A program made the position numbers and the translations under genes. Below the pieces are notes generated by a model, which saw nothing but the letters and a program-made list of their open reading frames with translations, was not told the origin of the DNA and made no database searches. From a virus, in IMG/VR virus record IMGVR_UViG_3300031963_000020, positions 84,341 to 148,340 of that record: 64,000 nucleotides of DNA. One strand, written 5' to 3'. Position 1 is the first letter of the stretch, and every line of letters starts with the position of its first letter. This document shows positions 3,401 through 25,447 of this stretch, piece by piece.

Positions 3401-6319
3401 TTACAAATCAATGTTCGTAACTTAAGTACAGGTTCTTCTGTATCGTCTGACATAGTTGCAGTAACACCATTAGGTACAGAAGATTTTGGTTACATTGATA
3501 TGGGTATCAATAGTGATAACTACGTTGGTAATAGAATTTATGATTTACCAGGAGACGGTTATCTGTATACCACAGGTAGTAATTTAGTAGTTGGTACATC
3601 AACCGCAAATAGTAACGTTACTATTTTCGCAGGTGGTGACACTTACGCCAATCGTAAGTTAACATTAAAAGCAAGTAATCAACACGAAATAACAGGTAGT
3701 GTAAATATCAGTGGTAGTATATTACCATCAAATGATTCTGTATTTGACCTAGGTTCACCATCATTAAAGTTTAGAAGTTTATATCTTTCTGGTTCTACTT
3801 TATATCTTGGCACGCTCGCAATCTCTGATAATAATGGTACATTATCTATAACACCATCGGGGTCATCGACTCTTTCACCTGTATCTGGTGCATTTACTGG
3901 GTCGTTCCTTGGTAATTTGATCGGAAATGCTAATACAGCAACAACAGCATCGTTTGCAACCACAGCATCATTTGCACTAAATGCACAAAACGTACCACTC
4001 GGTACAGTATCAAGTTCAGCACAATATCCTGGTTGGGTCACAAGTTCTGCGCAAATTGATTATAATAGTATACAAAATAAGTTAAGTGGTGTAATATCTT
4101 CATCAACACAATTTAACTCATTAAGTGGTACATCAGCATCATTTGCAACAACCGCAAGTTATGTAGCAGGTGCAGCAAGTGACTGGGCATCATTAGCAAA
4201 TAAACCAGCAGATATCGTAAGTAGTTCTACCCAAGTCAAGGCGTTCTTACCTGGTGGCACTGTAAGTGCATCGGCACAATATCCTGGTTGGGTAACCGCA
4301 TCATCACAAATTGATTATAATAATATTACCAACAAATTATCTGGTGTAGTTTCCGCATCAGCACAAGTAGTACCATTACTTCCTGGTGGAACCGTTTCAA
4401 GTTCAGCACAATACCCAGGATGGGTCACTAGTTCCGCACAAATTGTGGTGCAAAATACCACTGGTATTGGTGCGTTAGCAACAACTGGTTCAAATACATT
4501 TGTTGGTAATCAAGTAATTAGTGGTTCATTAACTACCACCGCAGATACAATGACCTTCAATGGGTCGATGGCCGTATCGGGAACACTTTCATTAACTGGT
4601 AGTTTAAATGTATTAAACGGTGGATTTACTGGTTCATTAACGGGTAGTGCAACTACAGCAACATCGGCGTCATTTGCAACTACCGCAAGCGCAGCAACCA
4701 GTATAACATTTATACCAGCAACGTCATCATTTGCATTAACAGCAAGTTATGTTCCTGGTGCAGCAAGTGATTGGAATTCTGTAGCAAATAAACCAGCAGA
4801 TTTGGTCAGTAGTTCTACCCAAGTCAAGGCGTTCTTACCTGGTGGAACTGTTTCAAGTTCCGTACAATACCCAGGATGGGTAACCGCATCAAGTCAAATT
4901 GACTATAACTCAATTCAAAATAAGTTAAGTGATGTTGTATCAAGTAGTGCACAAGTTCAACCACTACTTCCTAACGGAACAGTATCAAGTTCCGCACAAT
5001 ACCCAGGATGGGTAACCGCATCAAGTCAAATAGAATTAAATAGTATTACAGGAACCACATTTGCAACAGCAAACTTTACTTTCCCACAAAACTTAACTGT
5101 CGCTGGAACACTTACCGCTCAAGAAATACAAACCGAATACGTAACATCATCTATTATTTACGAATCTGGTTCAACTAAGTTCGGTGATACAGCAGACGAT
5201 ACACATCAATTTACAGGTTCATTAAGCGTTCTTGGAACAATTAGTGGTGGATTGGTATTACCAGCAGGAACTGTAACAGCATCATCACAAATTGATTATA
5301 ACTTAATTCAAAATAAATTAAGTGGTGTGGTAAGTAGTTCATCACAAATTCAACCACTACTTCCAGCAGGAACAGTATCAAGTTCTGGTCAAGTAGATGT
5401 TCGTAACACAACTGGTATTTCAACACTTGCAACTACTGGTTCAAACACATTTACCGCAACACAAACAATAATTGGAAACGTATTCTTAAGTTCATCGTTC
5501 CCATTAGTTTATAATAACGATAACACTAACAATATGTTGTTTGGGTTCTTTGATGGTAGCTCCATTTACGGTGCATATTATCAAACATTTGGAAATAACT
5601 ACACGGCACTAAATCAACGTGGTGGTGCAGAGTTTGTATATGATATTAGAAATAATAGTGGTGCAAACTTCCATATCGCATCATTTAATGGTGCAACTTG
5701 GACTGAAAAGTTTAGAGTAGATGATAACGGAGCACACGTAACTGGTTCATTGGTATCAACTGGTGGTATTACTGGTTCATTACTTGGAACAGCAAGTTTC
5801 GCAACTACAGCTTCATTTGCATTAGCAACCGCAGGAACCGTAGAAAATGCAAATACAGCATCATATGTAGCATATACAAATATTGATGGTAAACCAACAC
5901 TAGTATCTGCATCATCACAAATAGATTACAATTCTATTACGAATAAGTTGAGTGGTGTATACAGTAGTTCGGCATTCGCATCACCAAACCAAGGTACTGT
6001 AAGATTAACATTAAATGGTGTTCAGTTAACTGACGTTGATTTGGGTGTACAAACATCTGATACCCCAACATTTGCTGGAGTAAGTAGTTCAAATCATATC
6101 ACTCCAACCGCAGATAATACTTATAACTTGGGTGCACCTGATAAGAGATGGGCAAACATATACACGGGTGACTTAATATTATCTAATGAAGGTTCTTCAG
6201 GTAATACCGTAGATGGAACAACAGGTAACTGGACTATTCAAGAAGGTGAAGAACATCTATACATTATCAATAACAAGTCTGGTAAGAAGTTTAGATTTAT
6301 GTTATCGGAGATTAACTAA
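491..6319 (+). CDS. Giant tail/collar fibre protein (1942 aa) with collagen G-X-Y region, duplicated 191-aa domain and [10 protein letters not shown] repeats
   Basis: About 500 aa of GPT/GAT/GPQ triplets; C-terminal GDLILSNE...[31 protein letters not shown] domain typical of large myophage fibres. Confidence 0.75.
656..2156 (+). repeat. Collagen-like (Gly-X-Y)n coding repeat with one short interruption
   Basis: 9-nt periodic ggt-ccN-acN pattern; translation [10 protein letters not shown]... Confidence 0.9.
2621..3720 (+). repeat. Tandem duplication of a 573-nt (191-aa) domain inside the fibre gene
   Basis: AVSGGT..YIP...[31 protein letters not shown]...[15 protein letters not shown] begins at 2621 and again at 3194. 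Confidence 0.85.
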
Positions 6320-9300
6320 TGCCAATTATAGCAGGTCAGATTACAGGTTCAGCACTTAGTGGTTCGTTAAATTATACGTTCCTATCTAATATTCCTTCTG
6401 GAATAGTATCTGGAGCTGCCCAAGTAGCCGCAAATCTACCAGCAGGGACAGTATCAAGTTCTGGTCAAGTAGATTATAACTCAATAACAAATAAACTGTC
6501 TGGTGTTGTTTCTTCGTCAACGCAAATTCAACCATTATTACCTGATGGAACAGTTAGTGCATCAAATCAAGTAGATATTACAGCAACTACCAACTACTCG
6601 ACATTTAGTTCATCGTTGGCAACAGTTGATGCAGGTCAAACCACTCGTATTGATAATCTAGCAAGTTTGACCAGTTCGTATGCAATTAACGCAACTATTC
6701 AAGGCCAACTTGCTGGAGTTGCATCAAGCAGTGCACAAGTAAAAGCATACTTACCAGCAGACACAGTATCAAGTTCTGGTCAAGTAGATATTACCGCAAC
6801 TAGTGGTTATTCAACCTTTAGTTCATCAATTGCAACCAAAAACGATACACAAGACGTATCTATCGGTGCATTAAATGCAGCAACCAGTTCATACGCAATT
6901 AACGCAACTATTCAAGGACAACTTGCTGGTGTTGTTTCTTCTTCTACACAAGTTAAACCATTACTTCCTGGTGGAACTGTATCAAGTTCCGCACAATATC
7001 CTGGTTGGGTCACTGCGTCATCACAAATTGATGTACGTAATACTACAGGTATTGCAACAATTGCAACTACAGGATCAAACACATTTAATGGTACTCAAAC
7101 CGTTACAGGTAGTTTATTTACTAGTGGGTCAAATAGTTTAGTAGGAAGCACTACGTTATCTGGTAGTTTAGTTGTCTCTGGTGCAGCAATTACCTCGACT
7201 CCAAATATTCAAATTTACGGAGATACAGAATTTACTGGATATGCAAAGTTTAACCCAGTCACCAGTAATATTGATACCTCAATTTCCGCATCCTACATTT
7301 ATGTTAGTGGGTCAACCCAAGATTTATATTTCTCTCAAAATAGTGCTGGATATAATAACGTTACTCGTTTACGTTGGTTAGAAAGTAACCTCTACACGGG
7401 TCTATTAAAGGGTGGAATACTAACAACAACAACAGGATCTACCACGTTTAATATCAGTGCAGGTGAAGGTATTGTTGTAACTCTTAACGCATCAACAACC
7501 CAAGACCCATATCCAACAATTAAGTTGGTTCGATGGGACGCAAAAACCAACGTTCCTATTACGTTTTCGGGTTCAGCAAAGATTACCTACGTTGGATTAG
7601 ATGTTGCAGGTAATGTTATACAACAAGTTGTTCCTTGGGGTAGTACCGACATCAATCAATTTGATACCCAAATCAATTTAGGTGTTATTTTACATTCAAG
7701 TGCATCAATATCAACAGGAGCATATAACGCTCCACAAATTTCATATGGAGCTCCGCAAAAGGCGGACGACTTCTTTAGATCATTTGGTCCACTAAAAGTT
7801 TCTGGTCACACCTTACAAGCAAGTGGTAGTAGCCCATCACTTAGTATTAAAAAGACCGCTGGTACATCATATCGTGAAGGGTCAAATTATGCAAATAATC
7901 CAAACCATCCCAACACGGTCACAGAAGAAAGTGATATTACAATATCTAAGATATATCGTTATTATATCTCAGGATCAACTCCTGTTATTGATACGGGTGC
8001 TAGTGGATCAGGATATCCCACTCTCGATAACCAAAACCGCGTTGATACAGCAACGGGGTTATTAACATCAATTGGTTTAAGTAATTGGTCTATTCAACGC
8101 GTATTCTGGGTTCCAGGGTCACCAACCAACGCGTTTATTGTCTATTATGGTAACACCGCATACAGCACACTACTCAATGCAGTTAACGCAATTAATACGG
8201 AACCATTCACGGAAGCACCAGATACGGCAGCTAATGCTGTATTCATCGGATACATCGTAATTCAAGGTGGTAGTAATCGTGACTTACTAAACGCGACGGA
8301 TTGTACTATTATTCAAGCTGGATTGTTCCGTAACATTGCTGGTGTTGGATCGGGTGGAACACAACCAGTAGCAACCACGTTAGCAGGATTATCTGATGTC
8401 GGTATTAGTAGTCCAGCTATTGGTGACTTGTTGGTATATACTGGGGCAACGTGGAATAATACAAAGTCATTAAATGGTAGTTATTCACTTACTGGTAGTT
8501 TAGCAACAAATGATGGTATTACGGCAATAACAATTAATGCAACAGCAGTATCCGCATCACTTTCTGGTAGCGGTGCTGGAGTATTTGGCGTCAACTATAA
8601 TACCTTATCAAATATTCCAGCAGGTATCGTCAGTAGTTCAACACAAGTTCAACCACTACTTCCTGGAGGAACAGTAAGTAGCTCAGCACAATATCCAGGA
8701 TGGGTCACGAGTTCAGCACAAATTGATATTACCGCAACAACTGGATATTCTACCTTTAGTTCATCACTAGCCACCGTAGATGCTGGCCAAACCACTCGCA
8801 TCGATAACTTGGCAAGTCAAACAAGTTCCTACGCAATCAACTCAACAATACAATCGCAACTTGCTGGTGTAGTATCAAGTTCCACACAAGTTAAACCACT
8901 TCTTCCTGATGGAACTGTTTCCTCATCAGCACAATACCCAGGATGGGTCACTGCATCATCACAAATAGATTATAATAATATTACTAACAAGTTAAGTGGT
9001 GTTGTAAGTAGTTCTGCACAAGTAGTACCATTACTTCCTGGTGGGACAGTATCAAGTTCTGGTCAAGTTAGTTTAACTGCCACCTCAGAATACTCTACAT
9101 TTAGTTCATCAATTGCAACTAAAAATGATTTGCAAGATGTTTCTATCAACGCACTGAACGCAGCAACTGGTTCATATGCAATTAACGCAACAATACAAGG
9201 ACAACTTGCTGGTGTCGTATCATCGTCGGCTCAAGTTAAACCATTACTTCCTGGTGGAACGGTATCATCATCTGGACAAGTAGACATCACAGCAACAACC

Positions 9301-10827
9301 AACTATTCAACATTTAGTTCCTCGTTGGCAACAGTTGATGCAGGACAAACTACTCGTATTGATAATCTAGCAAGTTTGACCAGTTCGTATGCAATTAACG
9401 CAACTATTCAAGGTCAACTTGCGGGAGTAGTTTCTTCTTCAACACAAGTTAAGCCACTTCTTCCTGGTGGAACAGTTAGTGCATCAAATCAAGTTGATAT
9501 CACCGCAACTACGGGATACTCTACATTTAGTTCATCACTAGCAACAGTAGATGCAGGACAAACTACTCGTATTGACAACTTGGCGAGTTTGACCAGTTCG
9601 TATGCAATCAACGCAACAATACAAGGACAACTTGCTGGTGTTGTTTCTTCTTCAACACAAGTAAAACCATTACTTCCTGGTGGTACAGTAAGTGCTTCTG
9701 GTCAAGTAGACATTACAGCAACTACTGGATACTCTACATTTAGTTCATCACTAGCAACAGTAGATGCAGGACAAACTGCTCGTATTGATAATTTAGCAAG
9801 TCAAACAAGTTCCTACGCAATTAATGCAACTATTCAAGGGCAACTTGCTGGTGTTGTTTCTTCTTCAACACAAGTTAAGCCACTTCTTCCTGGTGGTACA
9901 GTAACCTCATCAGCACAATATCCTGGGTGGGTAACCGCATCAAGTCAAATTGACTATAATAGTATTCAAAATAAGTTAAGTGGGGTAGTATCGTCATCAA
10001 CACAAATTGTTCCGCTATTACCAGCAGGAACTATTAGTGCGTCATCACAAGTGGCATTAAATGCTATTACTGGAGTTACTTTTAGTAATTCCTCATTCTA
10101 TTTCCCAAATAATTTACGAGTTGAAGGAACATTAACCGCACAAGAAATTAATACAGAATATGTTTCTTCATCGATTATTTATGAATCTGGTTCTACCAAA
10201 TTTGGTGATACAGCTGACGATGTAATGAGTGTTACTGGTTCTATTCGTGTCTTGGGTGGAAATATTAGTGGGTCGTTTATTGGATTGGTTTCTTCATCGG
10301 CACAAATAGACTATAACTCTATACAAAATAAATTATCCGGTGTTGTTTCTTCATCAACACAAGTTCAACCACTGCTTCCAGTTGGAACTGTTAGTAGTTC
10401 CGCACAATATCCAGGATGGGTAACTTCGTCAACACAAATTGTTTGGTCATCAGTAAACTACAACGGAGGTATCGTCAGTAGTTCGGCACAAGTAAAACCA
10501 TTACTTCCTGATGGAACCGTATCAAGTTCAGCACAATATCCTGGTTGGGTCACCGCATCAAGTCAGGTAACAATTACTGGTATATCAGGATTGGGTGCTA
10601 ACGTAGCGACATTCTTGGGAACACCAAGTTCTGCAAATTTAGCAACAGCAGTCACAGATGAAACAGGTACGGGTGCGTTAGTATTTGCAGGAAGTCCAAC
10701 ATTAACTGGTACGGCTACTGCAAATAACATTGTAATGTCTGGGTCGCAATTCTCAGGAATAGTATCAGGTAGTGGATTACAATATAGATTAGTGGTTCCA
10801 GTCGGAACTAACCAATACGCAACCTAA
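6319..10827 (+). CDS. Large Ser/Thr-rich repeat virion (fibre) protein, 1502 aa
   Basis: 71-aa (213-nt) tandem repeats (e.g. at 9340, 9553, 9766), [14 protein letters not shown] repeats, central non-repetitive domain; C-terminus shared with ORF 10941. Confidence 0.7.
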   Translation: MPIIAGQITGSALSGSLNYTFLSNIPSGIVSGAAQVAANLPAGTVSSSGQVDYNSITNKLSGVVSSSTQIQPLLPDGTVSASNQVDITATTNYSTFSSSLATVDAGQTTRIDNLASLTSSYAINATIQGQLAGVASSSAQVKAYLPADTVSSSGQVDITATSGYSTFSSSIATKNDTQDVSIGALNAATSSYAINATIQGQLAGVVSSSTQVKPLLPGGTVSSSAQYPGWVTASSQIDVRNTTGIATIATTGSNTFNGTQTVTGSLFTSGSNSLVGSTTLSGSLVVSGAAITSTPNIQIYGDTEFTGYAKFNPVTSNIDTSISASYIYVSGSTQDLYFSQNSAGYNNVTRLRWLESNLYTGLLKGGILTTTTGSTTFNISAGEGIVVTLNASTTQDPYPTIKLVRWDAKTNVPITFSGSAKITYVGLDVAGNVIQQVVPWGSTDINQFDTQINLGVILHSSASISTGAYNAPQISYGAPQKADDFFRSFGPLKVSGHTLQASGSSPSLSIKKTAGTSYREGSNYANNPNHPNTVTEESDITISKIYRYYISGSTPVIDTGASGSGYPTLDNQNRVDTATGLLTSIGLSNWSIQRVFWVPGSPTNAFIVYYGNTAYSTLLNAVNAINTEPFTEAPDTAANAVFIGYIVIQGGSNRDLLNATDCTIIQAGLFRNIAGVGSGGTQPVATTLAGLSDVGISSPAIGDLLVYTGATWNNTKSLNGSYSLTGSLATNDGITAITINATAVSASLSGSGAGVFGVNYNTLSNIPAGIVSSSTQVQPLLPGGTVSSSAQYPGWVTSSAQIDITATTGYSTFSSSLATVDAGQTTRIDNLASQTSSYAINSTIQSQLAGVVSSSTQVKPLLPDGTVSSSAQYPGWVTASSQIDYNNITNKLSGVVSSSAQVVPLLPGGTVSSSGQVSLTATSEYSTFSSSIATKNDLQDVSINALNAATGSYAINATIQGQLAGVVSSSAQVKPLLPGGTVSSSGQVDITATTNYSTFSSSLATVDAGQTTRIDNLASLTSSYAINATIQGQLAGVVSSSTQVKPLLPGGTVSASNQVDITATTGYSTFSSSLATVDAGQTTRIDNLASLTSSYAINATIQGQLAGVVSSSTQVKPLLPGGTVSASGQVDITATTGYSTFSSSLATVDAGQTARIDNLASQTSSYAINATIQGQLAGVVSSSTQVKPLLPGGTVTSSAQYPGWVTASSQIDYNSIQNKLSGVVSSSTQIVPLLPAGTISASSQVALNAITGVTFSNSSFYFPNNLRVEGTLTAQEINTEYVSSSIIYESGSTKFGDTADDVMSVTGSIRVLGGNISGSFIGLVSSSAQIDYNSIQNKLSGVVSSSTQVQPLLPVGTVSSSAQYPGWVTSSTQIVWSSVNYNGGIVSSSAQVKPLLPDGTVSSSAQYPGWVTASSQVTITGISGLGANVATFLGTPSSANLATAVTDETGTGALVFAGSPTLTGTATANNIVMSGSQFSGIVSGSGLQYRLVVPVGTNQYAT

Positions 10828-10848
10828 TAAAAGTTGATATTTTATGGT

Positions 10849-10878
10849 AAAAAAGGCATCCAGACGGGTGCCTTTTTT
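10849..10878 (+). terminator. Intrinsic (probably bidirectional) terminator
   Basis: AAAAAA-GGCATCC-agac-GGGTGCC-TTTTTT just after the stop at 10827. Confidence 0.85.
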
Positions 10879-10900
10879 CGTTTATTCCGGTATAAAATGA

Positions 10901-10908
10901 TATTTATA
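10901..10908 (+). promoter_or_regulatory. Putative late promoter core TATTTATA
   Basis: Follows the terminator and precedes 10941; same 8-mer upstream of 15889 and 27589. Confidence 0.45.
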
Positions 10909-10940
10909 CGGGGGTGTATACACTTTAGTTTGAGTCTAAT

Positions 10941-13900
10941 ATGAGTTTATTAAAAGTCAATAATATCGAACTTGCTACATCTGGTAGTACTAACGTTACA
11001 TTTAATGACGACGTTACATTCGGTGCCGCAGTTAATATTTCTTCGGGATCTATCACAGCAAGTTTCGCTATTGCAAACGCATCTATCGAAAAAGAAAAAC
11101 TAACAAATGACGCCAGAGACTTCGTAAATATTCTTAATAAACCAGCAGGTCTTATCAGTAGTTCTGGTCAGTTCGTTAGTGCAATTTCTGGTTCCTCTTT
11201 AGAACTTGGTGGTATATTAGCAACGGGTAGTATTAGAACAACGAGTGTATTTAGTGGTAGTGGTGCACAACTATTTGGAATTCCAAACGCAGCATTAAAT
11301 AATAGTTCTATTACAATCAACGGTGGTGCAGTTTCACTCGGTGGAACTAGAACGCTTACCACAAGTGATATTACAGAAGGAACAAATCAATATTATACTG
11401 ACGCACGTGTAAAATCAAAATTAGATAGTGAAACCGTAGTCAGTAGTTCTGGTCAAATTAATTATCAAGCTGTAACGGGGCAACCTACAGTTAATACGTT
11501 TGGTGGAGATGGTAATCAATCGTTTACTATTGTAAATGGTATTTTTATTAGTGCATCTGGTGGTGCAGATGGTATTATTGTCACAAACGATTCAGGTAAC
11601 CAACTATTACGTTTTAGAACTGTTGGTGGAACAGTTTCGTCCTCCGCACAAGTAACAGCAGCATTACCTGCTGGTGTAGTATCAAGTTCAACACAAGTTC
11701 AACCATTACTTCCTGGTGGAACAGTTAGTGCATCGGCACAATACCCAGGATGGGTGACCGCATCAAGTCAAATTGATTATAACTCAATTACAAACAAATT
11801 AAGTGGTGTTGTTTCTACATCAGCACAAGTTCAACCATTATTACCAGCAGATACAGTTTCCGCATCAGCACAAGTTAAAGCATTTTTACCAGATGGAACA
11901 GTAAGTGCATCGGCACAATATCCTGGATGGATTACTTCATCTACACAAGTAGTTCAATCATTACCTGGTGGAACTGTATCGGCATCGGCACAATACCCAG
12001 GATGGGTTACCGCATCATCACAAATAATTGTACAAAACACTACTGGTATTGGAGCTATAGCAACCACTGGATCAAATACCTTTATTGGTAATCAAATTAT
12101 CTCAGGTTCTACAACAATTACTGGTGACTTAACAGTACAAGGAACCTCGTCTGTTACGTATGTTACCTCGTCGCAACTTAACGTAGGATCAAATACCATT
12201 ACACTAAATACTACCGATGTACTTCGTTACGGTGGGTTAACAGTATTTGATTCTGCTTCTGCTGGACAATCTGGTTCACTTCTCTGGGACAGTGTAAATA
12301 ATGTATGGTTATATGTCCACGCAGGAACCAGTAATACCAGTAGTATATTGATTACAGGTCCGGAAAATACTGGTGCGTTGGGTAGTGAACAGTTCTTAAC
12401 ACCTAATTTATTACCAAAGGCTGGACTAACTGGTGACCACATTGTAAATTCACAAATTAGTGATAACGGAACACAAGTGGGTATCGTTGGTGGGCTAAAA
12501 GTTACAGGATCCATCACATCGTCTCATATAGTTCCCGCAGTTACTGATACCTTTGATTTAGGTTCACCAACCTTAAAGTTTAGAGACTTGTATCTTTCTG
12601 GTTCAACGTTATATCTTGGCTCATTAGCAATTAGAGATAATGGTGGTGCGTTATCTATTGGACCATCTGGGTCAGCAATTGGAACCAATTCACCTGTATC
12701 GGGTGCATTTACAGGATCATTCCAAGGTAACGGTAGTCAATTAACTAATATCGCAAATGCAGCACTTCCTGGTGGTATAATTTCATCATCAACACAACTA
12801 CCAGCAGGTACAGTATCCGCATCGTCACAATATCCTGGATGGGTCACCGCATCAAGTCAAATTGACTACAACTCAATCACCAATAAACTTTCTGGTGTTT
12901 TTAGCAGTTCAACACAAATTGCAAATAATTTACCAGCAGGTACAGTATCAAGTTCTGGTCAAATTAATGCAGGTGCAACAGCAAACTTTGCAACTGCAGT
13001 AGCAGCACAACTTGGTACAGTACACTCTGGTAGTTTTATGAGTACCGCAACTACTAATAACTTACCAGAAGGTGTCACTAATCTTTACTACACGGATGCA
13101 CGAGTAAAAACCAAGATGAGTGGTGATGTTGTTCATTCTGGTAGTTTCCTTGGTACCGCAACCACTGATAATTTAACACAAGGATCAACTAACAAGTATT
13201 ACGCAAATTCCTTAGTATTAAGTTATATTGACTCACTTTCAGTTCTCAGTAGTTCACAACAAGTTGTCAATAGATTACCAATTGGAACAGTATCAAGTTC
13301 AAATCAAATTTCAAACGTATTAGTTACTAGTGCAAGTTACGCAGCAACTGCAAGTTTAGCACTTGGGGTATCTGGGTCACTTGCGGTCAGTACTGATGGA
13401 TTAAATGAAGGTAGCATAAATCTTTATTACACAGATGCACGAGTTAAGACCAAGTTAAATGCAGAAAATGTACATTCGGCAAGTTTCTTAGGAACGGCAA
13501 CCACTACCAACTTAACAGAAGGTATTAACTTATATTTTACCAATCAACGTGCGAAGGATGCACTTCCTGGGGTAGTATCATCGTCAGCACAAGTACCAAC
13601 ACTTCTTCCTGGCGGAACGGTATCATCATCAGCACAATATCCTGGTTGGGTCACCGCATCAAGTCAAATTGACTATAACTCAATACAAAATAAATTATCT
13701 GGTGTTATATCTTCTTCTACGCAAGTCAAACCATTACTTCCTGATGGAACCGTCACATCATCAGCACAATATCCAGGATGGGTCACTAGTTCAACACAAG
13801 TTGTCTGGTCATCGGTTAACTACAACGCGGGTATCGTCAGTAGTTCTGGTCAAGTTCAACCACTATTACCTGGTGGAACAGTATCATCATCAGCACAATA

Positions 13901-15888: not shown

Positions 15889-16620
15889 ATGTTAAGATTT
15901 TTTCCGTATAGAACATTTAGTTCGTCATTTGCATTCACGGGGTCCGCAGCACAAACTGCATCATTCGTGCTGTCTGGAACCACCGCATCGTTTTCACTAA
16001 CTGGTGGTGGTCCAACTGGTCCTGTTGGGCAAACGTCGGTAGTACAAGGTATTACAGGTGTATCAGGACCAACAGGTATAGGTCCAACAGGTCCACGTGG
16101 CACCACAGGTCCAACAGGCCCAAGATCAGCAACAGGTCCAACAGGACCAACTGGTATTACAGGACCAACTGGCGCTACAGGAGCAACTGGAGCTGCATCA
16201 ACTGGTCCAACAGGACCAATAGGAGTTTCAGGTAGTACAGGTCCAACAGGACCAACAGGTGCAACAGGTATTATCGGTATCACAGGTGCAACTGGTCCGA
16301 CAGGAGCAACAGGTCCAAGTGGTCCAACAGGTATTCAAGGTATTGCAGGGCCGCAAGGTGTTACTGGTGCTACGGGTCCAACTGGTGCAATTGGTGTCGC
16401 AGTATCAGGTATCCAAGGTCCAACAGGTGTAACAGGGCCGTCAGGTCCATTTGGTTCTTCTGGTCCACAAGGTACAATTGGTGTTACAGGTCCAACAGGA
16501 CCAACAGGTGCACAAGGAACCGCATTTACAGGGCCAACAGGTGCAACAGGTGCAACTGGTGCTACGGGTCCAACAGGAGCTGTGGGAGCTACTGGTCCAA
16601 CTGGTGCGAACACACCATAA
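15889..16620 (+). CDS. Collagen-like protein with N-terminal FFP motif
   Basis: MLRFFPY..SSSFA..TASF leader, then about 200 aa of G-X-Y to the C-terminus. Confidence 0.8.
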
Positions 16621-16635: not shown

Positions 16636-18279
16636 ATGACGTTTAAATTTTTTCCGTTCGGTGTACCAACTACTAGTTCGTTTGCAATAGGAGTCGGAGT
16701 AACAGCTACCGCATCTATTGCAATTAATAGTGGTTCTGCGTTCTCTACGGCGTCATACGCACTGGGTGGGTCCACGGGTGCCACAGGTCCAAGTGGTCCG
16801 CAAGGAGCAACAGGTCCAACAGGTCCAACGGGTCCAACAGGCATTTCTGGATCAACTGGTGTTTTGGGTACTTCTGGTTCAACAGGACCACAAACGTCAG
16901 GGTCAACAGGTCCGACTGGACCAAGTGGTATTACTGGAGCAACAGGTCCAACAGGACCAACTGGTATTACGGGTTCTACGGGTGTAATAGGTATTACAGG
17001 ACCATCTGGTATTCGTGGTGCAACAGGTGCAACTGGAGCAACAGGTCCAACAGGCCCAACAGGTAGTGTTGGTATAACTGCTGGTATCATAGGTGTATCA
17101 GGTGTTACAGGCCCAACTGGTTCATCTGGTCCAACTGGTGTACAAGGAAGCACGGGTCCAACTGGTGTGGGGCCAACTGGAGCAACAGGTGCAACGGGTC
17201 CATCTGGTTCAGCAGGACCAACAGGACCAGTGGGACCAACAGGAGCAACTGGTGCAATCGGACCATCTGGATCTTCTGGTCCAAATACATTCGGAATAGT
17301 TGGTATAACTGGAGCAACTGGTCCTACTGGTGTTATCGGACCAACGGGACCACAAGGAAACGCTGGTCGAGCTGTATTTTTCATAACAGGATCATGTAAT
17401 CAAACACATTCCGATATCACCGTTCCTCACAGTGACGTTGCAGCAAGTCATACTGATATCGCAGCAGCACACACAGATACTACCATTAATGCATCACATA
17501 GTGACATTGTTACCACAACACCAGCATCACATACAGATAATACTACACCATTCGTAAATACGACTATTAACGCATCACATAGTGACACAACAATTAATGC
17601 ATCACATAGTGATATTGCGCATAGTAATATTACAATTAACGCCGCACATACTGATAATACCACACCATTTAATAATATCGCATTTACTAATATTGCAAAA
17701 TCACATACGGATATTTCACACAGCAATATATCACATACGAATATCGGAGCAGCACATACAGATAATACTACACCATTTAATAATATCGCGTTTAGTAATA
17801 TTGCATTCACAAATACCACTATACCATTTAGTAACATAGGATTTAGTAATTCGTATACTCCACATTCAAACATTGCTAAAGGTGCAGTTCATAAAGACGA
17901 TTACGGTCCACCAGCACATACAAATAGTACAACACCACATAGTAATATTGCATTCTCAAACACAGGATTCTCTAACTCGTATACTCCACATACAAACGTG
18001 GGTCATACGGATATTGCGTTCTCTAATACAGGATTTAGTAATAGTTATACTCCACATACTAATATTGGTTCAGCTCACACCAACACTACAATCAACGCAT
18101 CACACACAGATAATTACACGGCACATCAAAACGTAGCGCATGGAGATATACCGTTCGTGAATAGTTATACACCGGCACAATGTTCGCAATGTCCTGGTGG
18201 AGATCCGTCTGAATGTGATTCGTTCTGTGAATGTTATCCAAACTGTGGTTGCTTCGGTAATACGTGCATCGGTATATAA
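16636..18279 (+). CDS. Collagen + 38 x [HF]-x-[DN] repeat + 8-Cys tip protein (zipper chain C)
   Basis: MTFKFFPFG leader; G-X-Y to about aa 244; repeat array aa 258-509; C-terminus CSQC...CDSFCEC..NCGC....C. Confidence 0.85.
17407..18162 (+). repeat. [HF]-x-[DN] motif array (38 motifs, spacings 5/7/9/11 aa)
   Basis: Hand-parsed from translation ([21 protein letters not shown] ... HGDIP FVN). Confidence 0.9.
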
Positions 18280-18305
18280 TAAATGTTTATAATAGGGAAT
18301 AAATA

Positions 18306-19082
18306 ATGCCAGGTCCAACACATACAAATATAGGCCACTCCGATATAGCGTTTGAGAATGTCTACGCTGCGCATACTGATTTTACACAAAATCCGGCACA
18401 CACTGACAATACCACACCATTTAATAATATTGCAGCAGCTCATACCAATATCGCTCATAGTAATCAGGCATTTCTTAATACTTCATTTAGTAATATAGCA
18501 AAATCACACACCAATGTATCACATACAAATATTGGGCATACAGACGGTACGGCAGCACATACAGACAACTATTCACCAGCATCGCATTTAGATAATACTA
18601 GTGCACACTCAAATATCGCAGCAGCTCATACAAATATTGCACATAGTAATATAGCAACATCACACACAGATATATCTCACTCAAATATATCTCATACTAA
18701 CATCGGTGCATCACACACTGACAATACCACACCATTTAACAATATTGCGTTTAGTAATATTGGGTTCGTAAACACCACTATTCCACATACTAATATTGGT
18801 CACACTAATATAGGTGCAGCGCATTCAGATAATACAACACCAGCAGATCACAGCGATATCGCATTTAGTAATATTACGATTAACGCAAGTCACACGGATA
18901 TTACAATCAACGCAAGTCACACGGATATTGCAGCATCACATACCGATACTACCATTAACGCATCACACACGAATATAGTAAGTACCACTCCAGCTTCACA
19001 TACCGACAGTACAACACCATTTACAAATAGTACTACACCACACTCAAATGTTGCGGCCGCTCACAGTAACGCATTCCTATAA
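18306..19082 (+). CDS. Pure [HF]-x-[DN] repeat protein, 38 motifs (zipper chain D, mirror partner of 16636)
   Basis: Almost entirely HTN/HTD/HSN/FSN units; AGGGA SD-like element upstream. Confidence 0.85.
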   Translation: MPGPTHTNIGHSDIAFENVYAAHTDFTQNPAHTDNTTPFNNIAAAHTNIAHSNQAFLNTSFSNIAKSHTNVSHTNIGHTDGTAAHTDNYSPASHLDNTSAHSNIAAAHTNIAHSNIATSHTDISHSNISHTNIGASHTDNTTPFNNIAFSNIGFVNTTIPHTNIGHTNIGAAHSDNTTPADHSDIAFSNITINASHTDITINASHTDIAASHTDTTINASHTNIVSTTPASHTDSTTPFTNSTTPHSNVAAAHSNAFL

Positions 19083-19088
19083 TACACT

Positions 19089-19952
19089 ATGTCGCAATTT
19101 TTTCCACTAGGTACACCAACAACTGCAAGTACAGCACTTATCAGTAGTTTAGCATTTACCGCAACGTATGCTGTGAATGTGAATGTGTTGACAGCATCAT
19201 ATGGTCCTGGACCAACTGGACCACAAGGTGATAAAGGACCAACAGGACCACAAGGTGCAACTGGATTGGCAGGGTCAGGTTCTACAGGACCAACGGGCGC
19301 AACAGGTCCAACTGGGCTAACTAGTTCAGGTCCAACAGGTCCAACAGGACCGCAAGGTGTAATCGGTATTACTGGTATTACAGGCCCAACAGGTGTCACA
19401 GGTTCTACAGGCCCAACAGGTCCAATAGGAATTACTGGTGTAATTGGTGTTACAGGTATTTCTGGTGTAACTGGTATTGCTTCATTTACTTCGGGTTCCA
19501 CAGGCGCTACTGGGCCAACTGGAGCAACAGGTGCTACTGGTGTGGTGGGTATTACTGGTGCAACTGGTATTATTGGAATCACAGGACCAACAGGATTGAC
19601 TAATTTGGTGGGCATTACAGGTCCAACAGGTCCAATAGGATTACCAACCACGGGTTCTACAGGTCCAAGTGGTCCACAAGGAGCAACTGGTGTTGTAGGT
19701 ACTGGTGGTGTTTCTGCAGGAGCGGCGGCATCTGGAGTCATCGGTATTACGGGTATTACTGGTGTACAAGGTACCACAGGACCGCAAGGAAGTCGTGGTG
19801 TGGACGCCGAATGTCCAGCAGGATTTGTAACCTGTACGGAAGGGGCTCCGTCATCGGGGTCAAATACATATACAAACCCAAATAGTAGTATATATTCTGT
19901 GGTTTGTGCCGCAAGACCAGTAGGTTGTTTAGGAACATTTACGTGTGTATAA
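19089..19952 (+). CDS. Collagen-like protein with FFP leader and 5-Cys C-terminal domain
   Basis: MSQFFPLG leader; G-X-Y to about aa 237; ECPAGFVTC...VVC....GC....TCV. Confidence 0.8.
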
Positions 19953-19984
19953 CGTTATTTTATAAGTAAAGGTATGGAAAATAC

Positions 19985-20002
19985 TACTTATATAGAGGTA
20001 GA
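19985..20002 (+). promoter_or_regulatory. Second copy of TACTTATATAGAGGTAGA element
   Basis: Identical to 97-114; upstream of GGAG SD and ATG 20025. Confidence 0.55.
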
Positions 20003-20024
20003 CGTTATGTGGAGAGTTTAATAT

Positions 20025-21218
20025 ATGGCTAAAGCACCTGGTAGTATTTGGGTAGATGGTGAAACCTTTAGATTTATTGACGCAACTGGAAACGAGTACT
20101 ATTACACTGGTACTGCGGGGTCTAGTCCTGCGGGAGCTAAGGCTGGTTCAATTTGGGTAGACGGAAATGATTTTCATTATATTTCTGCTACTGGTGTTGA
20201 CCGTACAATTGCATACACCGATTTGGGTGTAGCAGCGGGATCAAAACCAGGTTCAGTATGGGTGCAAACCACATTCTGGCAATGGATATCATCGGCAGGA
20301 AACGCTCGTCGTGGTCACACCGACGTAACAGCAGCACACACCGACAATACCACCCCAGCATCTCACACAGATATTGCATTCGTTAATACTACAATTAACG
20401 CGGCACACACAGATACTACAATCAACGCAAGCCATACAGATATAGCAAAAGCACACACGGATAACACAACACCAAATAGTCACACGGACAACACTACTCC
20501 GTTCAATAATATTGCGTTCGTTAATACTACAATCAATGCCGCTCACACGGATAATACAACGAACGCAAGCCATACAGATATAGCAAAAGCACACACGGAT
20601 AACACAACACCAAATAGTCATACTAACAGCTATACTCCACATAGTAATGTCGCACACACCAATATTGGTGCAGCGCACACGGACAACACTACTCCGTTTA
20701 ATAATATCGCATTCACTAACACCTATATTGGTAACAGTCACACCAACAGTTATACTCCACACAGTAATGTCGCACACACCAATATTGGTGCAGCGCACAC
20801 GGACAACACTACTCCGTTTAATAATATAGCATTTACCAATTCATATACAGGTAATAATCACACTAACAATTACACACCACACACCAATATCGGTCACAGT
20901 AATATCGGTCATACTAATATCGGATTTAGTAACATAGCATTTAGTAATATTGGATTTACCAATACAACTATCAATGCATCACACACAAATATCAGTCATA
21001 GTAATATTGGTGTATCGCATACAAATATCGGTCATAGTAATGTTGGATTTAGTAATTCGTATACTGGACACACAAACATTGCACATAGTAATATAGGCGT
21101 ATCGCATACAAATATTGGACATAGTAATGTTGGATTTAGTAATTCGTATACAGGATTTGTAAATTCTTACACACCACAAAATCACACAAATTCGTATCAG
21201 GGTGGTCCTTCAGCCTAA
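20025..21218 (+). CDS. Three GS[IV]WV repeats + 44 x [HF]-x-[DN] repeat protein (zipper chain A)
   Basis: N-terminal 97 aa with PGSIWVDG/AGSIWVDG/PGSVWVQ; array from aa 98 (nt 20316). Confidence 0.85.
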   Translation: MAKAPGSIWVDGETFRFIDATGNEYYYTGTAGSSPAGAKAGSIWVDGNDFHYISATGVDRTIAYTDLGVAAGSKPGSVWVQTTFWQWISSAGNARRGHTDVTAAHTDNTTPASHTDIAFVNTTINAAHTDTTINASHTDIAKAHTDNTTPNSHTDNTTPFNNIAFVNTTINAAHTDNTTNASHTDIAKAHTDNTTPNSHTNSYTPHSNVAHTNIGAAHTDNTTPFNNIAFTNTYIGNSHTNSYTPHSNVAHTNIGAAHTDNTTPFNNIAFTNSYTGNNHTNNYTPHTNIGHSNIGHTNIGFSNIAFSNIGFTNTTINASHTNISHSNIGVSHTNIGHSNVGFSNSYTGHTNIAHSNIGVSHTNIGHSNVGFSNSYTGFVNSYTPQNHTNSYQGGPSA

Positions 21219-21238
21219 TGCATGAAAAGGAATAATAT

Positions 21239-22144
21239 ATGAATCATAGTAATTCGACAACACCAGCATCACATACGAACATCGGTGCATCACATACTAA
21301 TATCGGGTTTAGTAATGTGGGGTTTAGTAATAGTTATACTCCATTTTCAAATGTTGGGTTCGGTAATGTCAATGCATCACATACTGATATTGGATTTAGT
21401 AATGTGGGATTTGCAAATTCTTACACACCATTTAGTAATGTAGGGTTTTCCAATAGTTACACACCAAATTCACACACTAATATTGCACACAGCAATATTG
21501 GTCATAGTAATATTGGATTTAATAATATTGCGTTTAGTAATATCGCATTTGGTAATATTGCAAGAACACATACCGATAACACTACAAATGCAAGTCATAC
21601 CAACATTGGTCATACAAATATTGGTGCTGCACACACGAATAACACCACACCATTTAATAATATAGCGTTTAGTAATATTGCGAAGGCACACACAGATAAC
21701 ACTACAAATGCAAGTCATACCAATATCGCGCATACAAATATTGGTGCTGCACATACGGATAACACCACACCATTTAATAATATAGCGTTTAGTAATATTG
21801 CGAAGGCACATACGGACAATACTACAATTGCCTCACACACGGACAATTACACTCCGCATACAAACACTACAATTAATGCGGCACATACCGACAATACAAC
21901 ACCAGCATCACATACGGATATCGCACATACTAATATTGCTGCAGCACATACGGACAATACTACTAACGCAGCCCATACGGACAATTACACCCCGCATACA
22001 AACACTACAATTAATGCCGCACACACGGATACCACAATCAACGCAAGTCATACCGACATTGCGCACACTAATACAACAATTAATGCTGCACACACGGATA
22101 ACACCACACCACATAGCGACCAACCAGTATTTGTTGGTCCATAA
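21239..22144 (+). CDS. Pure [HF]-x-[DN] repeat protein, 44 motifs (zipper chain B, mirror partner of 20025)
   Basis: AAGGA SD at 21227-21231; ends HSDQPVFVGP. Confidence 0.85.
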   Translation: MNHSNSTTPASHTNIGASHTNIGFSNVGFSNSYTPFSNVGFGNVNASHTDIGFSNVGFANSYTPFSNVGFSNSYTPNSHTNIAHSNIGHSNIGFNNIAFSNIAFGNIARTHTDNTTNASHTNIGHTNIGAAHTNNTTPFNNIAFSNIAKAHTDNTTNASHTNIAHTNIGAAHTDNTTPFNNIAFSNIAKAHTDNTTIASHTDNYTPHTNTTINAAHTDNTTPASHTDIAHTNIAAAHTDNTTNAAHTDNYTPHTNTTINAAHTDTTINASHTDIAHTNTTINAAHTDNTTPHSDQPVFVGP

Positions 22145-22209: not shown

Positions 22210-23529
22210 ATGACTATTGAATTAGAACCAGTTGGTGTAGTATGTAATTTAAGTTGCCCGTATTGTTACGAACATCCCATGCGAGATGCGGGTAATTTCC
22301 GACATAAAACATATTCCGTTGAAAAAATGTTAGAAGGTCTTGCCAAAGAAGGTGGTAATTTTACCCTCTTTGGTGGTGAACCATTATTAACTGATATTGA
22401 CGATTTAGAAACTATTTTTAAGTGGGGGTTTGACCGATATGGATTTAATGGTATTCAAACAAATGGTGTTTTAATTACTGACCGCCACATAGAAATGTTT
22501 AAGAAGTACAGAGTTCACGTCGGAATATCACTTGATGGTCCTGACGAAATGAACGACACGCGTTGGGCAGGGTCATTAGAAAAGACCAGAGAGGCTACCC
22601 GCAAGTCATTTGAAGCTATTAAAAAGTGTCTTGACAACAAGCTCTCACTTGGTTTAATTATTACTATCCATAAGAAGAACGGATTACCAAAATATCGTGA
22701 ACGTTTCAAGGCATGGATTAAAGAACTTCAGTCGTGGGGTGTTGATGGAGCAAGACTTCATCCACTAGAGATTGACCATAGTTCTGTTGGTGAAACATTA
22801 GCTCTTACACCAGAACAAAATATTGAGTTCCTATTAGATATGTGGGACTTTGAAATCAGTGAACTAAATGTTCCTGGTAAGAAATCATTTCAGTTTGATA
22901 TCTTCCGTGACGTAGAATATATGTTGCGTGCAGACGATGCAAACGCAACCTGTACATTTATGACTTGTGACCCATATACCACGCATGCGGTGCAAGGTAT
23001 TGACTCGCAAGGTAATAAAGCAAACTGCGGTCGTGGTAACAAAGAAGGTATTAACTGGATTAAAGCCGATGTTGACGGATTTGAACGTCAGATGGCACTA
23101 TATAATACACCACAAGAACATGGTGGATGTCAGGGGTGCCGATTCTTTATTATGTGTAAGTCACACTGCCCAGGTACAGGTGCAGATATGGACTGGAGAA
23201 ATAGAACGGATACCTGTATGAATTGGAAGGTAGCGTTTAGTATCTATGAACGAATGATGGTTGAACGTGGTGAGATGCCATTATCTCTAGACCCAAAATT
23301 AAAGAGATATGAAGATATTTTGATGTATGGTTATAGTAGAGGTGCAGAACTTAGATTAGAACACATTAAAAAGTATCTTGACCCAAATATTGGATTTGAT
23401 ATTGAAAGATACATCCAATCATATTTGATGAACCAAGCTATGGGTGGACACAAGCCACACGCAGACCATACAGATGAAACAGGAAGATACGCATTAGAGT
23501 TTAAAGAGAAGTACGGATATTTACCTTAA
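22210..23529 (+). CDS. Radical SAM enzyme with SPASM-type C-terminal domain (peptide/protein maturase-like)
   Basis: CNLSCPYC (CxxxCxxC), FGGEPLL, QTNG, GISLDGP; C-terminal CTFMTC...NC...CQGCRFFIMCKSHCP...C; tail HADHTD. Confidence 0.92.
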   Translation: MTIELEPVGVVCNLSCPYCYEHPMRDAGNFRHKTYSVEKMLEGLAKEGGNFTLFGGEPLLTDIDDLETIFKWGFDRYGFNGIQTNGVLITDRHIEMFKKYRVHVGISLDGPDEMNDTRWAGSLEKTREATRKSFEAIKKCLDNKLSLGLIITIHKKNGLPKYRERFKAWIKELQSWGVDGARLHPLEIDHSSVGETLALTPEQNIEFLLDMWDFEISELNVPGKKSFQFDIFRDVEYMLRADDANATCTFMTCDPYTTHAVQGIDSQGNKANCGRGNKEGINWIKADVDGFERQMALYNTPQEHGGCQGCRFFIMCKSHCPGTGADMDWRNRTDTCMNWKVAFSIYERMMVERGEMPLSLDPKLKRYEDILMYGYSRGAELRLEHIKKYLDPNIGFDIERYIQSYLMNQAMGGHKPHADHTDETGRYALEFKEKYGYLP

Positions 23530-23547: not shown

Positions 23548-23946
23548 ATGATACCAGGATTACACGCAGACCACGTTGACACATCGGGTGCATATGGTCA
23601 AAAATTTGAAGTCGTAAAAGACTTGTTAGAAAAAGGAATGTTGAAAGAAATTCCAGAAGAATTCCGTGATAAAGGAAATACTTCCGAAGAAGTTCCGGTT
23701 ATTACTAATTCACAAACAGTTGTTGGTAATCAGCAATCGGGATGGGATATGTCTCGTGACCATGCCGACCACGTTGACGAAACTGGTCGTTATGCACAAT
23801 CGTATATGGAACGATTTGGTTCGGATTCCTTAAATAATAACGAAATTTCACAAGGAACTACAGAACAACAGCAAGATACTGGTAATTCTTGGAAGTCTTT
23901 CTTGAAGAAGATTATTGCAGAAGAAAAGAGTAAGTTGAAGGTTTAA
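23548..23946 (+). CDS. Small protein with two HADHVD motifs
   Basis: HADHVDTSGAYG and HADHVDETGRYA match the tail of the upstream radical SAM; GAGGA SD. Confidence 0.7.
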   Translation: MIPGLHADHVDTSGAYGQKFEVVKDLLEKGMLKEIPEEFRDKGNTSEEVPVITNSQTVVGNQQSGWDMSRDHADHVDETGRYAQSYMERFGSDSLNNNEISQGTTEQQQDTGNSWKSFLKKIIAEEKSKLKV

Positions 23947-23965: not shown

Positions 23966-25447
23966 ATGCAAAGAATAAAGCATGTCTTGCCTGATTGGAC
24001 TCGGGTGCAGTGGACTTCTATAGAAAATAGAAACAAATACGAACCTATCATTGCGTCTATCAATAACGCATGGAAACAGATTGAACGTATGTCGGTTGTT
24101 CACGATATTCGTCCATCTTCACTAGATATATTATCACCAGAAGAACTCATAAATTTAACTGCGGAATACGAAAAACATGGAGTACTCGTAGTTCCTATTG
24201 GTAAAGAAGGAAAAGCAGGAACTTACTCGTCTACAAGTACACCATATAATGGTGGTGATTACAATATTCGTGTTGTATTCACAAAGTCTGAAGCTATAGC
24301 AGATGAATGGTTTAATATCTGGCAAGCAGAACCCCGCATTCGTGACCGTGAGGCTGGTCGTTTACTTGGGTATCCTACCTGCTGCACCAATCATTTTATG
24401 AAGTATTGGGTAGACCAGGAATTTGTTGATACTACGTGGACGATGGCAGCGGAAAATATGCAGTTAAATGATGACGATGAAACGCATCGTACTATTCATA
24501 TTAAGGCAGATACTCCACCTGAAGCAAACATAATGTGGCGTTGGCAAGGTGTACGATTGGTATCACATCTTCCGTGTTCGTTTGATTGCAAGGCAACAGA
24601 AGAACTTGGTATGAAGATGGCAGAACTTGGTCGTACACTTGGGTTTGAAAAAGAAGTAAATTGGATATATGAATTACTTTCGTGGCCTGTTGAATGGTCA
24701 GCACTGCATGGTATCGCAGAAATCCGTACACCAATCAACAAGATTTCATCCAGAACTGATATGACCCCGTGGAAGTATGTGGTACAGAAGCATGCACACG
24801 AATATCCTATTGATGGTATGTCTGGTATAACGTATCCGTATAATCAAAAGAAAATTAAAGTCAAACCCGTCACAAAAACTATCTCGTTCGCTAAATCTCT
24901 TGAAGATACTTCCGTATGGGAAGAAAACGGATTTAGTAATAAGGAAGCTATGGATCACTTCCACCAAGTTATCATTGACGCAATCGGGGATATGAAATAT
25001 ATTCCTGGTGGTAATGTCCTCGACCTCGGTTGTGGAAATGGTGTCTTGTTAGGTCGTGTAGTTGGAGACAGATTTGATCTCATCCCACACGGTGTTGAAG
25101 CAGACCGTCAACGTTGTATGTCCGCAGCAACTACCATCCATTGGGGTGTCTTTACAATGGGTAGCATCTTTGACCTTAATACGTGGAAGGAAGATACATA
25201 TAGTTTGGTACTTTTGATGCCAGGCAGACTTCTTGAAACCACACGTGTAGTATCAGAACAAGTGCGTAAGCAACTCTATGACAAGACAGACCTTGTTCTT
25301 ATCAACCTAACTTGTGATTGGACACAACAATATGGCTCGATTGAGAATATTATGAAGGTCACAGGTCTTGACCAAGAATGGGAACCAGCAGGTAAGTTAA
25401 TCCATCGTCAAGATGATATGGCACAACTTTTCAAGCGTAAGGTGTAA
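23966..25447 (+). CDS. DUF483-like domain fused to class I SAM-dependent methyltransferase
   Basis: GRLLGYPTCCTNHF and HLPCSFDC in the N-terminal part; VLDLGCGNG motif I in the C-terminal part. Confidence 0.65.
   Translation: MQRIKHVLPDWTRVQWTSIENRNKYEPIIASINNAWKQIERMSVVHDIRPSSLDILSPEELINLTAEYEKHGVLVVPIGKEGKAGTYSSTSTPYNGGDYNIRVVFTKSEAIADEWFNIWQAEPRIRDREAGRLLGYPTCCTNHFMKYWVDQEFVDTTWTMAAENMQLNDDDETHRTIHIKADTPPEANIMWRWQGVRLVSHLPCSFDCKATEELGMKMAELGRTLGFEKEVNWIYELLSWPVEWSALHGIAEIRTPINKISSRTDMTPWKYVVQKHAHEYPIDGMSGITYPYNQKKIKVKPVTKTISFAKSLEDTSVWEENGFSNKEAMDHFHQVIIDAIGDMKYIPGGNVLDLGCGNGVLLGRVVGDRFDLIPHGVEADRQRCMSAATTIHWGVFTMGSIFDLNTWKEDTYSLVLLMPGRLLETTRVVSEQVRKQLYDKTDLVLINLTCDWTQQYGSIENIMKVTGLDQEWEPAGKLIHRQDDMAQLFKRKV

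Follow-up and report, generated by a model that had tools for sequence, protein, structure and literature searches.

Several described systems each share part of what is seen at the locus examined here, which comprises four dense-repeat genes (A1, B1, A2 and B2) and the enzyme genes that follow them in a viral stretch of 64,000 nucleotides (nt). This stretch, hereafter the window, covers positions 84,341 to 148,340 of IMG/VR record IMGVR_UViG_3300031963_000020 and is the final 64 kb of that 148-kb linear virus record. The T4 gp37 needle (PDB 2XGF) is alike in its out-and-back chain, antiparallel strands, repeated shaft His residues and receptor-binding tip at the turn; chain reversal of this type with in-register antiparallel strands is also found here, at the level of sequence only. 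However, gp37 uses HxH, whereas all 114 array His residues of the window stand in H-x-D or H-x-N and no HxH was seen. The needle has seven iron sites, whereas the arrays here are 38–51 rungs long, and it has no counterpart to the His/Phe complementarity code and the variable even spacers described below. Unlike in gp37, the two directions are here often encoded by separate genes.

A second likeness concerns radical S-adenosylmethionine (rSAM) enzymes. In the triceptide systems (ChlB, HtkB, HaaB and MicB) and in DynA, as here, omega1-X2-X3 motifs are repeated and carry His, Phe, Tyr or Trp at position 1, and both in triceptide systems and here an rSAM/SPASM enzyme is encoded beside the array or substrate gene. 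Triceptide substrates are short leader-core peptides, whereas the proteins here are virion proteins of 258–869 amino acids (aa) with 38–100 motifs. The array proteins of the window (258–547 aa) have a collagen stalk or a folded N-terminal domain, and the conserved gene set has no protease gene. Moreover, a DUF483-methyltransferase protein joins the set here, unlike in triceptide systems, and the cross-link itself is only proposed. The same three-gene set has been described as an 'rSAM module' in the Thermus phages Cumys and phiMa (PMC11437467), the only paper on the array/rSAM/DUF483 gene set that we found; Cumys differs in having a dense single-chain array, almost all His/Asp, with 0–3 residues between motifs, a partial mirror and no His/Phe code.

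No description of separately encoded mirror-image repeat partners or of a His/Phe complementarity rule was found in the literature, and the mirror rule that avoids Phe-Phe looks like a new assembly code. In coiled coils, buried polar layers fix the register and the choice of partner. The likeness to the present arrays is conceptual: sparse polar rungs (His/His with Asp) among apolar ones, together with variable spacing, would set register and partner, whereas the repeats, unlike those of coiled coils, are not heptads and no helices are predicted.

Our explanation is that each of the pairs A1/B1 and A2/B2 would form one tail-fibre shaft, A as its outgoing half and B as its returning half, a single chain that reverses at the tip in relatives being cut here at the tip into two cistrons. 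The halves would lie antiparallel, with motif i of A facing motif n+1-i of B. Equal, even spacers (2, 4, 6 or 8 residues) would set the register, and position 1 of each motif would be chosen such that a rung practically never holds two Phe residues. There would be two rung types, namely His/His, in which roughly three motifs in four have Asp at position 3, and His/Phe with Asn. Mirrored spacing and His/Phe complementarity would set partner and register and keep two co-expressed fibres apart, and the rSAM/SPASM and DUF483-methyltransferase proteins, encoded right after the fibre genes, would target aromatic-x-Asp/Asn. We give this explanation as a whole, a code with its maturase in which physical contact underlies a real pairing rule, a probability of about 0.6. 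If true, mirrored spacers with at most one Phe per rung would be an undescribed protein-protein recognition code, a natural and evolvable antiparallel protein zipper that diversifies fast by matched changes in both genes. The code would explain why the two fibre types of one phage avoid mispairing, and possible uses include a programmable antiparallel zipper for protein design and phage-fibre engineering.

Mirror register and His/Phe complementarity in the window

Parsed as [H/F]-x-[D/N], the window holds 164 motifs (Table 1), in which the middle residue is mostly Thr or Ser. As the sequence-only reading of this DNA had stated, Phe motifs always end in Asn (50/50). Asp is absent from the 169 Phe motifs of the window and the IMG/VR pairs taken together. 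Spacers in all four arrays are even, at 2, 4, 6 or 8 residues, and every period is therefore odd, a 5-residue period being broken by periods of 7 and 9 residues. Lys, Arg and Glu are nearly absent. A2 and B2 have arrays of identical length, exactly 292 aa, without any His or Asp outside motifs, while A1 and B1 have one non-motif Asp each. Searches of the arrays against Pfam, PHROGs and NCBIfam returned just sub-threshold pentapeptide matches and one PHROG of unknown function; a pentapeptide-repeat identity (Pentapeptide_2 and Pentapeptide_4) was rejected because the scores, 18.7 and 19.7 bits, fall short of the cut-offs (38 and 26.4).

In the mirror register, the N-to-C order of A is set against the C-to-N order of B. 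Spacer lengths then agree at 43/43 positions in A2/B2 and at 34/37 in A1/B1. In A2/B2, whose arrays have 13 and 15 Phe motifs, the rungs comprise 28 His-Phe, 16 His-His and 0 Phe-Phe, where 4.43 Phe-Phe rungs are expected; in A1/B1, with 13 and 9 Phe motifs, the corresponding counts are 22, 16 and 0, where 3.08 are expected. These counts agree exactly with those claimed from the sequence alone. The hypergeometric probability of finding no Phe-Phe rung is 1.3e-3 for A2/B2 and 1.25e-2 for A1/B1. Because Phe motifs cluster in runs, a run-preserving shuffle of H and F was needed, and it returned P = 0.009 and P = 0.025, respectively. None of the circular register slides reached 0 Phe-Phe (0/43 for A2/B2 and 0/37 for A1/B1). 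When the non-cognate arrays of the window are combined (A1 with B2, A2 with B1), 49–62% of spacers fit and up to 9 Phe-Phe rungs appear.

It might be argued that the complementarity is a by-product of repeat duplication and repeat grammar, with no selection at the level of the rung. A common unit of three His motifs and then two Phe motifs (spacers 2-4-4-2) self-pairs in mirror, and A2 and B2 carry tandem duplications of 138, 120 and 87 nt at mirror-equivalent positions, matched in both genes. To judge from these sequences, duplication matched between the two genes seems to be how the fibre grows longer. However, permutation within classes of flanking-spacer length still gave P = 1e-4 (A2/B2) and 4e-3 (A1/B1), and the Phe-Phe rule is therefore no by-product of repeat grammar. 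The depletion that a permutation check on the H/F labels was expected to reveal is thus significant under both run-preserving and spacer-context nulls. After removal of the second duplication copies, A2/B2 retains 27 rungs with 0 Phe-Phe (P = 0.02); the tip regions of A and B use different, complementary units; and non-cognate pairs give 3–9 Phe-Phe rungs. Inverted DNA repeats, a conceivable source of the mirror, were not found, and the mirror therefore exists at the protein level only; duplication cannot yield such a mirror. We regard a by-product origin as very improbable.

Cognate pairs and fused homologs among related phages

Relatives were retrieved with the downstream rSAM protein, which gave 22 IMG/VR loci and 44 metagenome loci (locus numbers with the prefix L below). 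Array genes are present in most of the loci that reach far enough upstream. Direct searches with the repeats yielded little: megablast of 20 kb and tblastn of B2 against INPHARED gave no match, possibly owing to the low-complexity filter, and a word-based homolog search with B2 gave one match only. The two pairs of the window and six IMG/VR pairs together contain 301 rungs with 1 Phe-Phe, compared with about 25 expected, a depletion matched by 0/20000 shuffles under the run-preserving null and likewise under the context-conditioned null. Eleven more non-duplicate metagenome pairs add 441 rungs with 2 Phe-Phe, compared with 40.6 expected (0/5000 shuffles). For the window and 17 further cognate pairs, this amounts to 742 rungs and 3 Phe-Phe, where about 66 would be expected.

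Partner specificity is also visible between phages. Cognate combinations of A2 and B2 have equal spacers at 43/43, 45/46, 42/43, 37/38 and 28/32 positions with 0–1 Phe-Phe rungs, whereas non-cognate combinations have 12–24 equal spacers of 32–44 and up to 9 Phe-Phe rungs. In phages whose rSAM protein is 96–99% identical to that of the window, the base-proximal barcode is shared and tip-proximal block lengths differ, the changes being concordant in both partners; at the sequence level, this is compensatory covariation. The pattern differs between phages and between fibres and changes in both partners, and would therefore be a code for partner and register. Single-chain mirrors (described below), the cognate-only fit and the concordant change in partners all strongly support the earlier claim of physical pairing, independently of the spacing match within the window.

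In one relative (L009 3965-5086, 5090-5839 and 5867-6706), two genes share the coding of the A1-type outgoing strand. The outgoing pieces are a collagen stalk with 14 motifs and then 29 motifs with a knob, and a single B1-type partner of 37 motifs bridges the junction, as if splinting both pieces.

Fused homologs show where the two halves meet. The 869-aa protein encoded at L015 2680-5286 has an A2-type N-terminal domain, about 51 rungs outward, a 9-residue turn and spacers mirrored back at 50/50 positions, and it closes with a B2-type tail. A second protein (L016 6501-8183) has 19/19 mirrored spacers. In two A1-type proteins (L011 4859-6481 and L013 5510-7081), both half-arrays flank a Cys-rich knob and the ends are B1-like. 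The fused homologs reverse at a turn or knob, and the gene split of the window therefore lies at the distal turn. The A1 knob of the window found tblastn matches in L009 and L010 only, and it is equated with the knobs of L011 and L013 because of its position and Cys-richness. On this comparison of sequences, A runs outward, B runs back and the knob forms the tip, and antiparallel cognate pairing of A and B is highly probable. L015-type relatives also use 3-residue spacers, and these are mirrored too.

The C-terminal tail of B2, QPVFVGP, is conserved and also closes fused homologs. An AlphaFold 2 (AF2) model of a fused homolog (L016 9076-9936, 42-sequence alignment) has a predicted local distance difference test (pLDDT) score above 90 in the N-terminal domain, and its last seven residues, a QPV-type tail, form a strand with pLDDT 86. 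This model hints that a B2-type tail docks back on the N-terminal domain, which in the window may amount to a direct B2-A2 contact at the fibre base. A predicted complex of three A2 (94-243), three B2 (148-301) and four Fe scored 0.00, which is not evidence either way. Collagen repeats imply a trimer, and Gly-X-Y repeats occur in the A1 stalk (aa 45-98 and beyond), not in the arrays. Because of this stalk, we infer a 3:3 stoichiometry for the collagen-borne A1/B1 fibre, while that of A2/B2 could be 1:1.

Asp in His-His rungs and a possible role for metal

In each pair of the window, 15/16 His-His rungs contain one Asp or more, compared with 3/28 (A2/B2) and 6/22 (A1/B1) His-Phe rungs; the counts from which Asp had been claimed to mark His-His rungs are hereby reproduced. 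Across cognate pairs, Asp is found in 64–86% of His motifs that face His and in 0–29% of those that face Phe (Fisher p 2e-2 to 1e-9 per pair), being 3–10 times commoner in the former. The coupling persists within fibre-position tertiles (p = 5e-4, 1e-11 and 9e-11), and this stratification rules out a regional composition gradient as its cause. Isolated His-His rungs between His-Phe rungs hold Asp in 26/27 cases. The association is thus real in the clade, but the stricter form of the claim did not survive. The Asp residues of the two partners are independent within His-His rungs and Asn/Asn rungs are not depleted, which rules out a rung-level requirement for at least one Asp; nearly every His-His rung has one because the per-motif Asp frequency is about 72%. 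Asn/Asn His-His rungs are frequent in all-His homologs, at 13/46 (L015), 7/21 and 4/20. Cross-strand His-Asp ion pairs as the sole cause were also rejected: Phe-x-Asp facing His was never found in the clade of the window, although such ion pairing ought to favour it, and simple cross-strand His-Asp pairing is therefore not the whole story.

One could suppose that His/His(+Asp) rungs are metal sites that clamp the strands as iron does in gp37, with His/Phe rungs as inert packing layers; the sequence-only reading had proposed metal or cross-link sites and packing layers, respectively. The gp37 needle does hold seven His-bound irons along its antiparallel strands (PMC6957217; PMC11705849). The distribution of Asp, missing from Phe motifs and enriched in His facing His, would suit metal binding, as would the Asp charge, which is otherwise unbalanced in arrays with almost no Lys, Arg or Glu, and the H-x-D motifs that make up nearly all 61 motifs of Cumys gp13. 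Against this, the motif is H-x-D/N rather than HxH, and there is no sequence match to gp37 or any solved chain: phmmer of A2 against all PDB chains gave nothing below E = 0.86, and Foldseek with the AF2 model of L016 9076-9936 against the PDB gave nothing at E <= 0.001. Partner Asp residues are independent and Asn/Asn His-His rungs are common in the all-His homologs. Moreover, all-Phe, Tyr-rich and Trp-rich relatives keep the architecture and the enzymes, and metal leaves the constant presence of the rSAM enzyme unexplained. As a full account of the rungs, clamping by metal is unlikely. That His/His rungs bind metal in addition to their role in the pairing code is also doubtful, and a combined arrangement, mirror-barcoded strands in which every rung would be stapled by the rSAM enzyme and His/His+Asp rungs would also hold metal, can be put forward only tentatively.

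The rSAM module, the wider family and the genomic setting

With A2 as query, HMMER found 286 matches at E <= 1e-3 among 1.8 billion cluster representatives, an array-protein family of at least 286 sequence clusters that includes cultured Thermus phages. Arrays of at least six motifs lie behind the same N-terminal domain in 92 of the 149 matches listed (query excluded), and many array proteins of the wider family end in a QPV-type tail. His is dominant in the family, while P0079 is all-Phe, P0076 and P0128 are Tyr-rich and P0123 is Trp-rich. Read across these sequences, the common denominator of the family is aromatic-x-Asp/Asn, not His. The cultured Thermus phage member, Cumys gp13 (L036 8961-9992, PQ109079.1), is annotated as hypothetical and has an A2-type N-terminal domain, the 61 motifs mentioned above with spacers of 0–3 residues, and a QPV tail. 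Its gene lies directly upstream of rSAM (45% identity) and DUF483 genes and adjoins tail-collar and baseplate genes; the mirror in this protein is only partial, with 16 gaps, and is without a His/Phe code.

Where contigs extend far enough, the array gene has an rSAM gene and a DUF483 gene after it; the three occur together in 24/29 loci, down to 28% rSAM identity, and this linkage takes in Tyr-, Trp- and Phe-rich arrays as well as Thermus phage Cumys. The DUF483 protein accompanies the rSAM gene in most loci, including those of Thermus phages. The rSAM protein has CxxxCxxC and SPASM CxxCx5Cx3C motifs, and among solved proteins anSME and the triceptide synthase ChlB are closest to it. In dynobactin, Trp is joined to the beta-carbon of an Asn two positions further along, and known rSAM enzymes act at the beta-carbon of Asp or Asn. 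PapB acts on Asp (PMC10739248), and Tyr, His and Phe motifs within the same substrate are all modified by one triceptide synthase (PMC12912966). Given the 24/29 linkage, enzymatic modification of the motif is the likelier chemistry, and the aromatic-x-Asp/Asn motifs are probably substrates of the rSAM enzyme. On the triceptide (PMC11499958; PMC12912966) and dynobactin precedent, which fits best, the aromatic ring joined to the beta-carbon two residues on would staple each motif; by this analogy, an intra-motif cyclophane is a plausible product, although we would put it somewhat below even odds. The conserved rSAM/SPASM and DUF483 genes point to modification of all motifs, not just those of His-His rungs. 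The reason for the exclusion of Phe/Phe may lie in rung packing or solubility. If the motifs are indeed targets of the rSAM enzyme, each phage would show radical SAM cross-linking at about 160 sites of a structural virion protein, that is, chemistry of the type used on peptides made by ribosomes and modified after translation (RiPPs) maturing a virion protein. It would also give a structural reading for the widespread triad of array protein, radical SAM/SPASM enzyme and DUF483 protein.

Alternatively, the rSAM/DUF483 module may modify DNA or another target, in which case the rung code would be purely non-covalent packing. For the Thermus phages, the function of the module was left open and DNA modification was proposed, and cyanobacterial homologs adjoin deazapurine genes (PMC11437467); phage phiLo, moreover, has the enzymes without a nearby array gene. 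However, an array gene is directly adjacent in the 24/29 loci over 28–99% rSAM identity and in varying gene order, SPASM enzymes act on peptides or proteins, the residue two after the aromatic one is invariably Asp or Asn, and an array is fused to the rSAM protein of L033. An unrelated target is improbable. Still less credible is a role of the arrays as RiPP precursors, from which small cyclophane peptides would be cut, instead of as fibre shafts. Multi-core triceptide precursors do carry repeated omega-x-x motifs beside an rSAM/SPASM enzyme (PMC11499958), which the arrays resemble, but the arrays bear a collagen stalk, a conserved N-terminal domain or Cys-rich knobs, they lie within the tail module and adjoin baseplate genes in L036 and L042, mirrored spacing and partner covariation serve no role in a precursor, and the conserved gene set includes no protease gene.

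Several observations weigh against a code with its maturase. Phe-Phe rungs do occur, if rarely, in the three cases among the 742 rungs of split pairs and once in a fused homolog; the two that were located (in L009 and in the fused L011 protein) lie where a His block on one strand gives way to a Phe block. Related phages are also non-independent samples. In distant single-chain relatives, where the rung alignment is less certain, the number of non-His:non-His rungs equals the expectation (31 in both cases) and Phe-x-Asp occurs often. An exclusion rule for the wide family is thereby ruled out, and the lack of depletion makes Phe-Phe exclusion a rule of the clade rather than a property of the fold. 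The AF2 model of L016 9076-9936 has pLDDT below 50 in the array, so it offers no rung geometry. The rSAM protein scores 38–65 bits against NCBIfam cut-offs of 310–450 (YhhB, AmcB, GrrM, FxsB and XyeB), with anSME as the top-scoring family; being below all family cut-offs, its reaction cannot be named. Finally, phiLo (L035, MH673673.1 142004-163173) has an rSAM protein of 51% identity and a methyltransferase with no array gene within 10 kb. This locus may be rearranged, because IS605-type transposase genes lie just upstream of it.

The window also encodes tail genes (baseplate hub and tape measure) and replication genes. Collagen-like proteins and the four array genes, all on the + strand, span 15.9–22.1 kb (Table 1).

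Table 1. Features of the array locus in the window, with the genes of interest of locus L033 in that locus's own coordinates
Feature	Position	Strand	Basis or remark
A1 gene	16636-18279	+	Collagen stalk, array, Cys-rich end
A1 N-terminal collagen-like stalk, aa 1-257	16636-17406	+	Pfam Collagen E = 8e-24
A1 array, 38 [H/F]-x-[D/N] motifs, aa 258-509, proposed outgoing strand of fibre 1	17407-18162	+	34/37 spacers mirrored in B1
A1 Cys-rich C-terminal knob, proposed fibre tip	18163-18279	+	Placement and Cys-richness
B1, array-only, 38 motifs, aa 6-255 (nt 18321-19070), proposed returning strand of fibre 1	18306-19082	+	Own ribosome-binding site
Collagen-like protein with Cys-rich C-terminus, between the two pairs	19089-19952	+	Pfam Collagen E = 3.8e-24; kept upstream of A2 in relatives
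A2 gene	20025-21218	+	N-terminal domain, array
A2 N-terminal domain, three beta-hairpin repeats	20025-20315	+	Kept in 286 cluster representatives
A2 array, 44 motifs over 292 aa (aa 98-389), proposed outgoing strand of fibre 2	20316-21191	+	Motif parse
A2 tandem duplications	20371-20646, 20613-20852, 20981-21154	+	
B2, 44 motifs over 292 aa (aa 3-294, nt 21245-22120), proposed returning strand of fibre 2	21239-22144	+	Own ribosome-binding site
B2 tandem duplications	21256-21429, 21569-21808, 21780-22055	+	
Radical SAM/SPASM enzyme, proposed maturase of the arrays	22210-23529	+	Cys motifs; Pfam Radical_SAM E = 1.4e-15
132-aa protein of unknown function	23548-23946	+	Follows rSAM in the close clade only, 41-66% identity
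DUF483 and methyltransferase-like protein	23966-25447	+	Pfam DUF483 27 bits (cut-off 25); weak MetW/MTS matches
L033 genes of interest	5508-6953, 9266-11140, 2841-5102		

Locus L033, whose rSAM protein is 31% identical to that of the window, encodes an rSAM protein with a C-terminal tail of ten H-x-D/N motifs, a 625-aa protein that is nearly all array, and a 754-aa fibre-like protein that ends in an array. A further collagen-like protein of the window is encoded at 15889-16620, and the gene at 58470-59906 encodes a protein with a Druantia DruA domain (Pfam E = 2e-25).

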